From Planctomycetota bacterium (lineage in GTDB: Bacteria > Planctomycetota > UBA1135 > UBA2386), in contig OZ245006.1 in NCBI GenBank assembly GCA_965223545.1, positions 2,816,001 through 2,880,000 of the forward strand: DNA of 64,000 bases, given 5' to 3'. A model generated the notes under the pieces. The model did no database searches. It saw nothing but the letters and a program-made list of their open reading frames with translations, and was not told the DNA's origin. Positions 11,640 through 13,391 of the stretch are shown piece by piece. Position numbers and translations under genes: made by a program. How positions within the stretch are numbered: the first letter of the stretch is position 1; every line of letters starts with the position of its first letter.

Positions 11640-11683
11640 GGCGACAAGCCTAGTGGAGACGCAAAGCGAACGTACGGAGCCAG

Positions 11684-11925
11684 TCCTGCCCCGGCAGATT
11701 TGTCGGCCCTTCAGGGCAGGAAACTAGCCGCTGAGGAAGGGGGAGGGGAACGTGTGAGGGGCCCGGCAGCTACGCCCCCAATAGCCACTGGAGCACGTTT
11801 GCCCCAGAGCCAGTCTGGGTCCGAGTTGGCCATCCTTCACTGGTGAGGGGCACGTCGCCGTGCCCACTCCCGCAGGTCAGATTCGTTTGATCGCCGCCTC
11901 GGGCCGGGCCCACCACAACAATGAG
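11684..11925 (+). ncRNA. Putative IS110 bridge RNA region
   Basis: Non-coding end upstream of the recombinase with several hairpins (CCCAGA-gccag-TCTGGG; GGGCACG-tcgc-CGTGCCC). Contains CAGGTCAG (11873-11880), identical to the element right end plus core (13321-13328). Boundaries approximate. Confidence 0.6.
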
Positions 11926-11933
11926 GATGAAGT

Positions 11934-13316
11934 ATGGCTGGGAAGAGCAGAACGAGGAAGGGCAAGAAGCCCGCAGCGGAAGTATTGCCAGTCGTGAAGC
12001 CCAACGCCGCCGGAATCGACATCGGCAGCCGCGAGCACTGGGTGTGCGCAGCAGCACCCGACGGCAGTCGTCCGATCAAGCGATTCGGAACGACGACGCC
12101 CCAGCTAGAGGCGCTCGCGGACTGGCTGGAGGAGCTCGGAGTGCGATCCGTCGCGATGGAGAGCACCTATGTCTACTGGATTCCCGTCTACGAGCTACTC
12201 GAGTCGAGAGGCTTCGAGGTCATCCTCGCGAATGCCCGCGAGGTGAAGAACGTGCCGGGCCGCTCCAAGTCCGATGCCAGCGATTGCAGTTGGCTGCAGA
12301 AGCTACACACCTATGGCCTCATTCGCGCTTCGTTCCGGCCTCCGAAGGACATCTGTGCGTTGCGGACCCTGCAACGCCATGCCGCGTCTTTGATCGCGCA
12401 GCGCACGCGCCACACGCAGTTGATGCAGCGGTCACTGGATCAGATGAACGTGGCGATCCATCGCGCGGTAACGGACATCACCGGCAAGACCGGCCTCGCG
12501 ATCATCCGCGCGATTCTCGCTGGTGAACGCGACCCTCGAGCGCTCGCCAGACTGCGTGATCCGCGCTGCAAGATCTCCGAGAAGGAGCTCGCGGATCACT
12601 TGCAAGGGACCTGGATCGAGGAGCACATCTTCACTCTCGCTTCGGGCTTGCGGATGCTCGAGCACACCGACCACGAGATCGAGTCGGTCGAGAAGCGATT
12701 GATGGCGATGATCGAGGACCTGCAACCGGAGGAAGCCAAGACGGCCGACGTCCCCGAGCATCCAGACCCCCGCAAGGAGAGGAGCATCCGAACGAAGGGC
12801 GGCCGGGAGCTTCGCGATGCCCTCTGCCGGCTCGTCGGGTGTGATCTCACGCGAATCGACGGTATCAGCCCGAGCACGGCCATGATCGTGCTCACCGAGG
12901 TCGGCTACGACCTCGAAGCTTTCCCGACCGAGAAGCACTTCGTCTCCTGGCTACGCCTGTGCCCACGTCAAGCCGTCTCGGGTGGAAAGCGCATCAAGAA
13001 GCACCGCAACAACATCGCGGTCAGCAGGATCGCCACGGTCCTCCGGATGGCCGCCCTGTCCCTCCAACGTACTCAGACAGCTCTCGGCGCACACTTCCGC
13101 AAGATCGCCCGCGCGAAGGACGGCAACGTCGCCATCTTTGCCATCGCCCGCAAACTGGCCCTGCTCATCTACCGCATGCTGAAGTTCGGCCAGGACTACG
13201 TAGACGAAGGCGCCAAGGCCTACGAGGAGCGCTTCACCCAGCGACGCATCGTCGGACTCCGACAGAACGCTAAATCCCTCGGGTACAAGCTCATACCGAT
13301 CGCCGAGGCTGGGTGA
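11934..13316 (+). CDS. IS110-family recombinase/transposase (DEDD RuvC-like + Tnp20)
   Basis: GIDIG, AMESTYVYW, KSDASDC; C-terminal IDGIS...FVSWLRLCPRQAVSGG...AIARKLA. Confidence 0.95.
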   Translation: MAGKSRTRKGKKPAAEVLPVVKPNAAGIDIGSREHWVCAAAPDGSRPIKRFGTTTPQLEALADWLEELGVRSVAMESTYVYWIPVYELLESRGFEVILANAREVKNVPGRSKSDASDCSWLQKLHTYGLIRASFRPPKDICALRTLQRHAASLIAQRTRHTQLMQRSLDQMNVAIHRAVTDITGKTGLAIIRAILAGERDPRALARLRDPRCKISEKELADHLQGTWIEEHIFTLASGLRMLEHTDHEIESVEKRLMAMIEDLQPEEAKTADVPEHPDPRKERSIRTKGGRELRDALCRLVGCDLTRIDGISPSTAMIVLTEVGYDLEAFPTEKHFVSWLRLCPRQAVSGGKRIKKHRNNIAVSRIATVLRMAALSLQRTQTALGAHFRKIARAKDGNVAIFAIARKLALLIYRMLKFGQDYVDEGAKAYEERFTQRRIVGLRQNAKSLGYKLIPIAEAG

Positions 13317-13325
13317 GTTTCAGGT

Positions 13326-13391
13326 CAGGCTCCGATTCATCACCCGGCGCCGCCGGGTGATGAATCGGAGCCTGGCTCCGTACGTTCGCTT
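13326..13391. repeat. GC-rich perfect palindrome (23-bp stem, 3-nt loop); outer 20 bp pairs with 11664-11683
   Basis: CAGGCTCCGATTCATCACCCGGC-gcc-GCCGGGTGATGAATCGGAGCCTG; 13372-13391 is the exact reverse complement of 11664-11683. Lies between converging stops, so it may also act as a terminator. Confidence 0.9.

Follow-up and report, generated by a model that had tools for sequence, protein, structure and literature searches.

The closest studied case to the element described here is ISPpu9 of Pseudomonas putida KT2440, which has an AG core, inserts in repetitive extragenic palindromes (REPs) and REP doublets and forms circles at the AG (PMC12288879). In that report ISPpu9 has a left A box of 43 bp, which contains an inverted repeat, and a right B box of 16 bp, lacks a promoter at the junction and still forms circles when the hairpin is mutated, no box-only mutant appearing in the text, whilst a second report places the transcript start ~84 nt in, downstream of the box (PMC8450116). 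An antisense RNA, Asr9, and a native promoter are further marks of ISPpu9. In the text of both papers the guides are unmapped, the group is described without end inverted repeats and the A box goes unexplained. IS621 has a right donor guide that pairs to the top strand next to the core (PMC11208160), and current design rules for bridge recombinases, which are under development for genome writing, assume the IS621 layout with donor guides contiguous across the core. Here we describe an IS110-family element at 11684..13328 (plus strand; 1645 bp with one AG core counted) of a 64,000-nt stretch of a Planctomycetota bacterium genome (contig OZ245006.1, positions 2,816,001 to 2,880,000), the whole of which we call the window. 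An IS110 element in a REP is already known and ordinary; the new part is a displaced donor guide, a strand of the predicted donor loop that tracks, in the same sense, a box inside the element's left end, and which as a pattern across aligned relatives is well supported. A mapping of such a guide was not found in the literature searched, most subscription papers lying outside the reach of that search. Many bridge RNA models are reported to depart from IS621 (Fig. S12 of 10.64898/2026.10.21.760802), and that figure may already contain this layout, unremarked, as may Extended Data Fig. 10 of PMC11208160.

Relatives were drawn from genome contigs (75 loci), metagenomes (the best 80 of 224), further genome searches and seven plasmid regions. 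Their left ends were aligned over ~155 nt in 37 sequences (37 of 39 anchored RNAs were used). Among loci of at least 48% identity, 10/84 could not be parsed and the other 74 collapsed to 64 distinct ones, L157 and L231 being dropped as misparsed; tests on the right flank omit L210 (a tandem copy) and L140 (a self-join), and the protein tree omits L153 and L059 (wrong frame). The predicted bridge RNA core (11760..11910, plus strand) sits in the left end, upstream of the transposase gene, and comprises an outer stem closing a three-way junction with a target arm and a donor arm, each with an internal loop made of a 9-nt 5' strand and a 9-nt 3' strand that ends in AG. Covariation argues for this fold: 20/34 pairs changed on both sides, and 94% of cells were paired versus 30-56% in slid controls (0/500 shuffles). 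On this comparative evidence a non-coding RNA with target and donor guides is predicted. An Rfam search with the RNA returned two chance matches only, and a sigma-70 scan of the linear left end gave 0 matches. The GG after CACT was considered as a handshake guide and set aside, as it pairs with CC in a stem showing A-U covariation.

Guides are labelled left target (LTG), right target (RTG), left donor (LDG) and right donor (RDG) after PMC11208160, and in all guide tests the DNA ends were set by motifs independent of the RNA. The 3' strand of the target loop (11805..11813, plus strand), the candidate left-target guide, has the sense of the left flank plus AG and matched it at 4.54 versus 1.91 of 5 positions over 30 RNA types, whilst the 3' strand of the donor loop (11872..11880, plus strand), the candidate left-donor guide, has the sense of the element's right end plus AG and matched it at 4.79 versus 2.71 of 5 over 14 distinct guides. 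The 5' strand of the target loop (11779..11787, plus strand) would be a short right-target guide, its AGC (11783-11785) being complementary to the GCT right of the core; complementarity to the right flank was 1.87 versus 1.13 of 5 (p=0.0005, 34 types) at offset 0 only, and the same strand read in the same sense further along the right flank gave no peak over offsets 0-29. A 2-nt bulge in this guide is unneeded, as the continuous register pairs C with the core G at the cost of one mismatch. The top-strand (right-target) guide thus placed lies 5' of the bottom-strand (left-target) guide, an IS1111-like order. Matched by itself, the left guide has 315 empty sites in the genome (84 REP), and with GCT added it has 104 (86 REP), so that RNA pairing suffices for site choice without a hairpin gate. 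The target is very probably chosen by RNA guidance, and hairpin gating of the kind described for ISPpu10 may not be required by these site counts.

The 5' strand of the donor loop (11831..11839, plus strand) tracks an internal left-end box (11705..11713, plus strand), whose last 6 nt, CCTTCA, have the sense of that strand. The box lies 22-30 nt into the element from its left end, with a DNA hairpin before it and a subterminal inverted repeat next to it. From the left end the order is AG, four free bases, GC, a hairpin whose sequence varies, the box, 4-6 nt and GAAAC; the right end has GTTTC, 5 nt and AG. In the window the hairpin (11691..11706) has a 6-bp stem, the left subterminal repeat GAAACT (11720..11725) stands 36 nt inside the left junction, and the right end (13316..13328) reads AGTTTC, 5 nt and the AG core, all on the plus strand. 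These repeats are 6 bp here and 5-8 bp in relatives, the left copy lying 34-42 nt inside, and the outer 3 nt of GAAAC/GTTTC covary (2.04 versus 1.10 of 3, 23 combinations). Six of the 23 full copies of the element in the genome form a subtype that differs at ~10 positions, two of which (window 11694 and 11698) change a G-T pair of the hairpin stem to A-T, strengthening it, or enlarge the loop by a T.

Over 17 distinct guides the donor 5' strand and the box agreed at 5.47 versus 3.90 of the 6 variable positions (p<1e-4). In an unbiased scan of every RNA column against every DNA column, four of the ten top hits joined the left guide to the left flank, four the donor 5' strand to the box and two the donor 3' strand to the right end; the donor 5' strand/box hits (z 6.1-8.3, e.g. 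33/34 versus 11.5 expected) were level with the left-target guide. No match between a guide and core-adjacent bases was among the top hits, and the canonical IS621-type test, with the guide antisense to the bases after the core, gave p=0.31, 0.57 and 0.97. On a protein tree of 32 elements, 21/25 guide changes were mirrored in the same box column, compared with an off-register mean of 4.4 and maximum of 10 over 265 pairings, and ~9 for unrelated variable columns. Relatives of 40-47% identity also showed the match (4.27 versus 2.55, 11 guides; 21/140 loci parsed), and a second deep test, on a set that largely overlaps the first, gave 4.17 versus 2.30 of 5 (12 guides; 24/147 loci parsed). A tally of independent pairs found ~11 concordant and 0 opposite in columns 3-6, columns 1-2 being weak. 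The box is unlikely to be a -10 element: its spacing to any -35 varies, the promoter scan found none and the ISPpu9 start lies downstream.

From these patterns the donor 5' strand likely pairs with the bottom strand at the box, and we consider it probable that base pairing with the donor loop is how the box is recognised; for what purpose is less sure, and we lean slightly towards excision or insertion rather than regulation. Several observations weigh against this interpretation. The types of mismatch leave the paired strand unfixed, six fitting bottom-strand wobble and five the opposite, and independent pairs are too few per column for significance (1-4 each). The guide/box match is partial or absent in L030, L254 and L258-L260, and most of the deep loci failed to parse. 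The left-end hairpin is only modestly stable relative to shuffles (median z -0.97; 13/33 below -1.5), and the circles made by the ISPpu9 hairpin mutant speak against an essential role of the hairpin in excision. The guide for the right target is also weak: in G004, G002 and G623, multi-copy families vary in their right flanks. Finally, no circle junction was found in the genome, and no circle joints were seen in the contigs of the public runs.

On balance we favour a reading in which an intact IS110 element has inserted at the AG of a REP, and in which the RNA of its left end likely directs the recombinase to two places, the REP and, unusually, the element's own left-end box. An RNA of ~150 nt plus leader would be made from the left end and bound by the DEDD/serine recombinase. 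The 4-6 nt between box and left subterminal repeat would mirror the 5 nt between AG and right repeat and, read on the bottom strand, the left end would run repeat, ~5 nt, YG and guide-matched bases, a mirror of the right end; on this spacing both ends would be held as inverted half-sites. They would be gripped by the donor loop, the stretch from core to box bending back at the hairpin, and cutting would take place at the terminal AG. The two ends would then be joined at that AG to form a circle, which has been shown for ISPpu9, and the circle would recombine into an empty REP, where the direction of insertion would be set by the centre base of the near-palindromic unit. That a split donor of this kind, with the donor loop pairing to the bottom strand twice, at the right end and at a left inverted half-site, operates across a widespread IS110 clade that includes ISPpu9 is a tentative proposal in which we have a little less than even confidence. 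If true, the bases at the new junction would go unread by the RNA, donor capture would have another geometry than in the solved IS621 complex, and programming these recombinases would call for different design rules.

The best surviving alternative, which we regard as unlikely, is that the donor 5' strand pairs with the box for regulation, the recombinase-RNA complex settling on its own left end and damping the element's promoter whilst the donor is read by the right-end half match plus protein contacts. Donor half matches are reported to suffice for IS621 excision (10.64898/2026.08.31.748434; PMC13626964), the promoter of ISPpu9 is immediately downstream of its A box, with a start at ~+84 (PMC8450116), and in ISPpu9 the bases right after the left AG are reported to matter for a correct junction, though no guide matches those bases here. 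Set against this, the box keeps to 4-6 nt from the left repeat, as a recombination half-site would, and deletion of the ISPpu9 A box abolishes circles, although the deletion removes the end too (PMC12288879). It is more improbable still that guide and box are alike through copying (gene conversion or templated rewriting) or through a common protein pocket, without RNA-DNA pairing. Same-sense identity is what copying predicts, and the mismatch spectrum favours neither strand; the match is, however, confined to the loop strand that is in guide position by symmetry with the target loop and fades at the outer columns as a guide does, and the box sequence varies freely among clades, unlike a protein-binding motif. 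We give very little credence to an ordinary IS621-like bridge, with the right donor beside the core and a box match left by shared ancestry: the relatives are kin, the permutation tests ignore kinship, and both the family assignment and the RNA upstream are what the IS110 group typically shows, but no guide matches the core-adjacent bases, the changes shared on the tree far exceed those off register (21/25 versus at most 10) and the match recurs with other letters in the 40-47% relatives. Equally remote is a donor in the form of an inverted intermediate, with the right end joined to a reversed box through Piv-like inversion of either the 30-nt segment or the element body, which would give the donor loop a canonical full match and is largely excluded by 0 such joins in the genome, by only two 6-nt matches, at chance level, among 56 loci, and by the direct joins in L153 and L140 and in ISPpu9, whose circles are reported to join A and B boxes directly at AG.

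The recombinase behind the favoured reading, in which the RNA directs it to REP and box, is encoded at 11934..13316 (plus strand), is intact at 460 aa and carries DEDD residues D29/E76/D114/D117 and the SG serine S349 (PF01548, PF02371, NF033542). It scores 248 bits against the NF033542 cut-off of 140, combines the DEDD RuvC-like domain with a Transposase_20 domain bearing the SG serine, as IS110 family members do, and matches IS621 only distantly (E 2e-10). That the element belongs to the IS110 family and sits in a REP is as good as certain. Its neighbours are a DUF2716 gene and an FG-GAP gene, each encoded on the minus strand, and at this locus the insertion is extragenic.

An earlier note on this DNA had proposed that removing the element restores a perfect inverted repeat with 40-bp arms, and excision of 11684-13328 in silico reproduces this exactly, as 83 nt (formally 41+1+41, i.e. 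40-bp arms with a 3-nt loop; arm pairs 11664-11683/13372-13391 and 13326-13349/13351-13374). The left half of the split REP unit (11664..11683, plus strand), which is the left target, is closed by the AG core at 11682-11683; the right half, a spacer and a second, inverted REP unit follow the element (13329..13391, plus strand), and the unused symmetric site that had been expected in the other arm is real, a free target at 13367..13383 on the minus strand. Near-identical empty doublets, for which the note had suggested a search, lie at C1:5038492, C1:769833 and C1:5274454, with unrelated flanks beyond the arms, which rules out an assembly fold-back. Its claim of exact element ends was likewise borne out when the flanks of the other copies were compared: the 23 full copies are 99.4-100% identical and have only 11681-13328 in common, and so the arms, excluded from the element in all 23, are target DNA. 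GAGC and then CAG precede 23/23 copies (GGAGC in 22/23), and GCTCC follows 22/23, the exception being a tandem duplication. CAG is indeed present at both junctions (11681-11683 and 13326-13328), as had been noted, and insertion occurred without duplication beyond a short core, CAG alone being common to the 23 copies. CAG fails as the core itself: the left junction in relatives reads TAG, AAG or GAG, and since only AG is shared, alignment across relatives indicates that AG is the recombination core, the C being shared here by coincidence.

In public read runs, which may be the source sample of the assembly, the depth of the element was ~15-20x that of its flanks (143 versus ~10 in X1; 688-727 versus 33-35 in X2/X3), and none of the contigs from these runs covers the whole locus or crosses a junction by 31 letters. 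Two rearranged loci were also seen in the genome (G000). At C1:4826228-4829693, 170 bp plus the IS are duplicated in tandem, the right end having joined an unrelated AG that lies 170 bp upstream of the left end; similar events, off-boundary or by half match, are reported for ISPpu9 mutants and for expanded IS110 loci. At C1:988112-988240 a short deletion derivative, outside any REP, has the first transposase codons fused to the right end.

The earlier note had taken the 83-nt palindrome as the target, which holds for the window site as an inverted doublet; the unit itself is a near-palindromic REP of ~31 nt, and 13 of the 22 occupied sites are singlets. The 13-nt core GGAGCC[A/T]GGCTCC has 85 empty occurrences in the genome against 0.33 expected under an order-5 Markov model, an excess that chance does not explain. 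With the IS removed in silico, the genome has 120 REP units, of which 68 are singlets, 40 belong to inverted groups and 12 to direct groups; the element occupies 22 of the 120, namely 13 singlets, 5 members of inverted groups and 4 of direct groups. No occupied inverted doublet (n=5) is filled in both arms, an absence without significance at an occupancy of 18%. All 23 copies begin at the identical REP base, and the direction of insertion follows whichever REP strand reads CAG. Class-A REPs hold 22/22 insertion sites and class-B REPs, which differ from class A at position -2 of the left guide, hold none in 34 AG-bearing units (P=0.003). The exact 17-nt REP motif occurs once each in 2/60 relatives. 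At C1:1714943-1718282 (G000) a doublet with both arms filled was also observed, in which the second unit has a flipped centre base and the copies are oriented alike.

Two inverted REP units flank an HUH Y1 gene at C1:3914571, its product exceeding the Pfam cut-off for Y1_Tnp and scoring 63.5 against a cut-off of 80 for NF047646. Of the two target classes named in the earlier note, REP was right and MITE (miniature inverted-repeat transposable element) was not, no duplication being seen and the link being to a gene resembling a REP-associated tyrosine transposase (RAYT); by sequence the target family appears REP/REPIN-like (REPIN: REP doublet forming a hairpin) and RAYT-linked. The likeness to REP/REPIN-RAYT systems lies in short palindromes that occur singly and as inverted doublets, and in an HUH Y1 tyrosine transposase gene with one such palindrome on either side. 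The 5' foot here is GTAC and not GTAG, and the linked proteins (333 and 307 aa) fall below the NF047646 cut-off and recall in length subclass 2.1 of the scheme in PMC6006769, for which the same account reports that no REPs were found. At C1:3912820-3917193 (G000, L002) both inverted REPs around the RAYT-like Y1 gene (~330 aa) are filled by this IS, with right ends toward the gene; the IS has split both REPs of a gene that possibly maintains its target family. A second RAYT-like gene at C1:1729780-1731000 (G000, L001) is flanked by a second REP class (core GGAGTCAGGCTCG plus variants), which builds many perfect doublets and holds no copy of this IS.

Retargeting is suggested by a 78%-identical relative (G159), whose left guide is GTGCCAG and whose host has 118 copies of GTGCCAGGCAC (reversed control 4). 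In the REP of that genome (L264:1490-1590) the GAACGTAC foot is kept and compensatory stem changes are matched by the guide of its IS. From these sequences the relative appears retargeted to its own host's REP, so that in two related genomes the guide differs in step with the REP. Direct joins of right end, AG and left end occur in 2/56 related loci (L153 and L140). Of 55 related loci, 16 stand directly behind right-end-like sequence (L159, L107, L111, L114, L091, L095, L137, L138, L018, L165, L166, L233, L244, L250, L252 and L253), with left-target guides that resemble donor guides, and some lineages appear to target sibling elements and form arrays. In L020 and L090 the right end matches the element's target guide instead of the donor guide. 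Four plasmid relatives of ~43% identity (L254, L258, L259 and L260) have by eye an AA core and an A-run guide and lie in A-runs inside other transposase genes, the L254 type being common on Citrobacter and Enterobacter plasmids.

The clade is large, 7880/8000 scored candidates falling at E<=1e-50, and probably includes the lab-tractable ISPpu9, for whose 43-bp left box the covariation between guide and box gives a base-by-base prediction applicable to ISPpu9-like elements. Donor reconstructions that use 25-nt windows (10.64898/2026.10.21.760802) could miss or shorten a displaced guide.

Compared with IS621 and ISCro4/IS622 (PMC11208160; PDB 8wt6, 9t56), the element shares a recombinase with DEDD and serine residues, an upstream RNA with target and donor loops, a 2-nt core inside the guides and, with IS621, a REP target. 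The earlier note had named IS621 as its example; ISPpu9 is the closer studied element, and the RNA guides, on which the note was silent, are arranged otherwise than in IS621. IS621-type recombinases have ~326 aa versus 460 aa here and a CT rather than AG core; the RNA here has a three-way junction and the reverse guide order in both loops, its fourth guide is in the same sense as an internal box and not on the top strand beside the core, and the subterminal repeats of 5-8 bp are placed asymmetrically. Within a loop of IS621 the bottom-strand guide reportedly lies 5' of the top-strand guide. That order is described for ISEc21, and the top-strand guide is said to come first in IS1111-type, not IS110-type, RNAs (PMC11187229). 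With the IS1111-type seekRNA elements ISEc11, ISKpn4 and ISPa11 of that report the element shares a top-strand match 5' of the bottom-strand match and subterminal inverted repeats. It differs from them in that its RNA is upstream and not downstream of the transposase gene (250 nt of non-coding DNA upstream and 12 nt downstream, where IS1111 elements have a long non-coding region), its repeats are 6 bp rather than 7-17 bp near both ends, with the left one ~36 nt inside, and its transposase is far above 330-350 aa. ISPpu10 (10.64898/2026.03.19.712850) is likewise an IS110 element restricted to REPs; it has a CT core and a target stem-loop reported to add specificity, whereas here guide pairing alone explains the sites and it is the donor end that bears the unusual hairpin. 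For ISPpu9 DNA, two scans by motif and a protein scan of viral contigs found no element. ISPpu9 differs in its REP and guides and in an Ssr9-like MITE not seen here. It has a long transposase sharing motifs with ours by eye, and by the same means our motifs fall near its ISfinder neighbours ISAzo22 and ISCARN20. In the tables of its report the left end of ISPpu9 reads AG, spacer, hairpin, box, 5 nt and CAAAC and the right end GTTTG, 5 nt and AG, the same anatomy as here, with the left-end hairpin of our element analogous to the inverted repeat of the A box.

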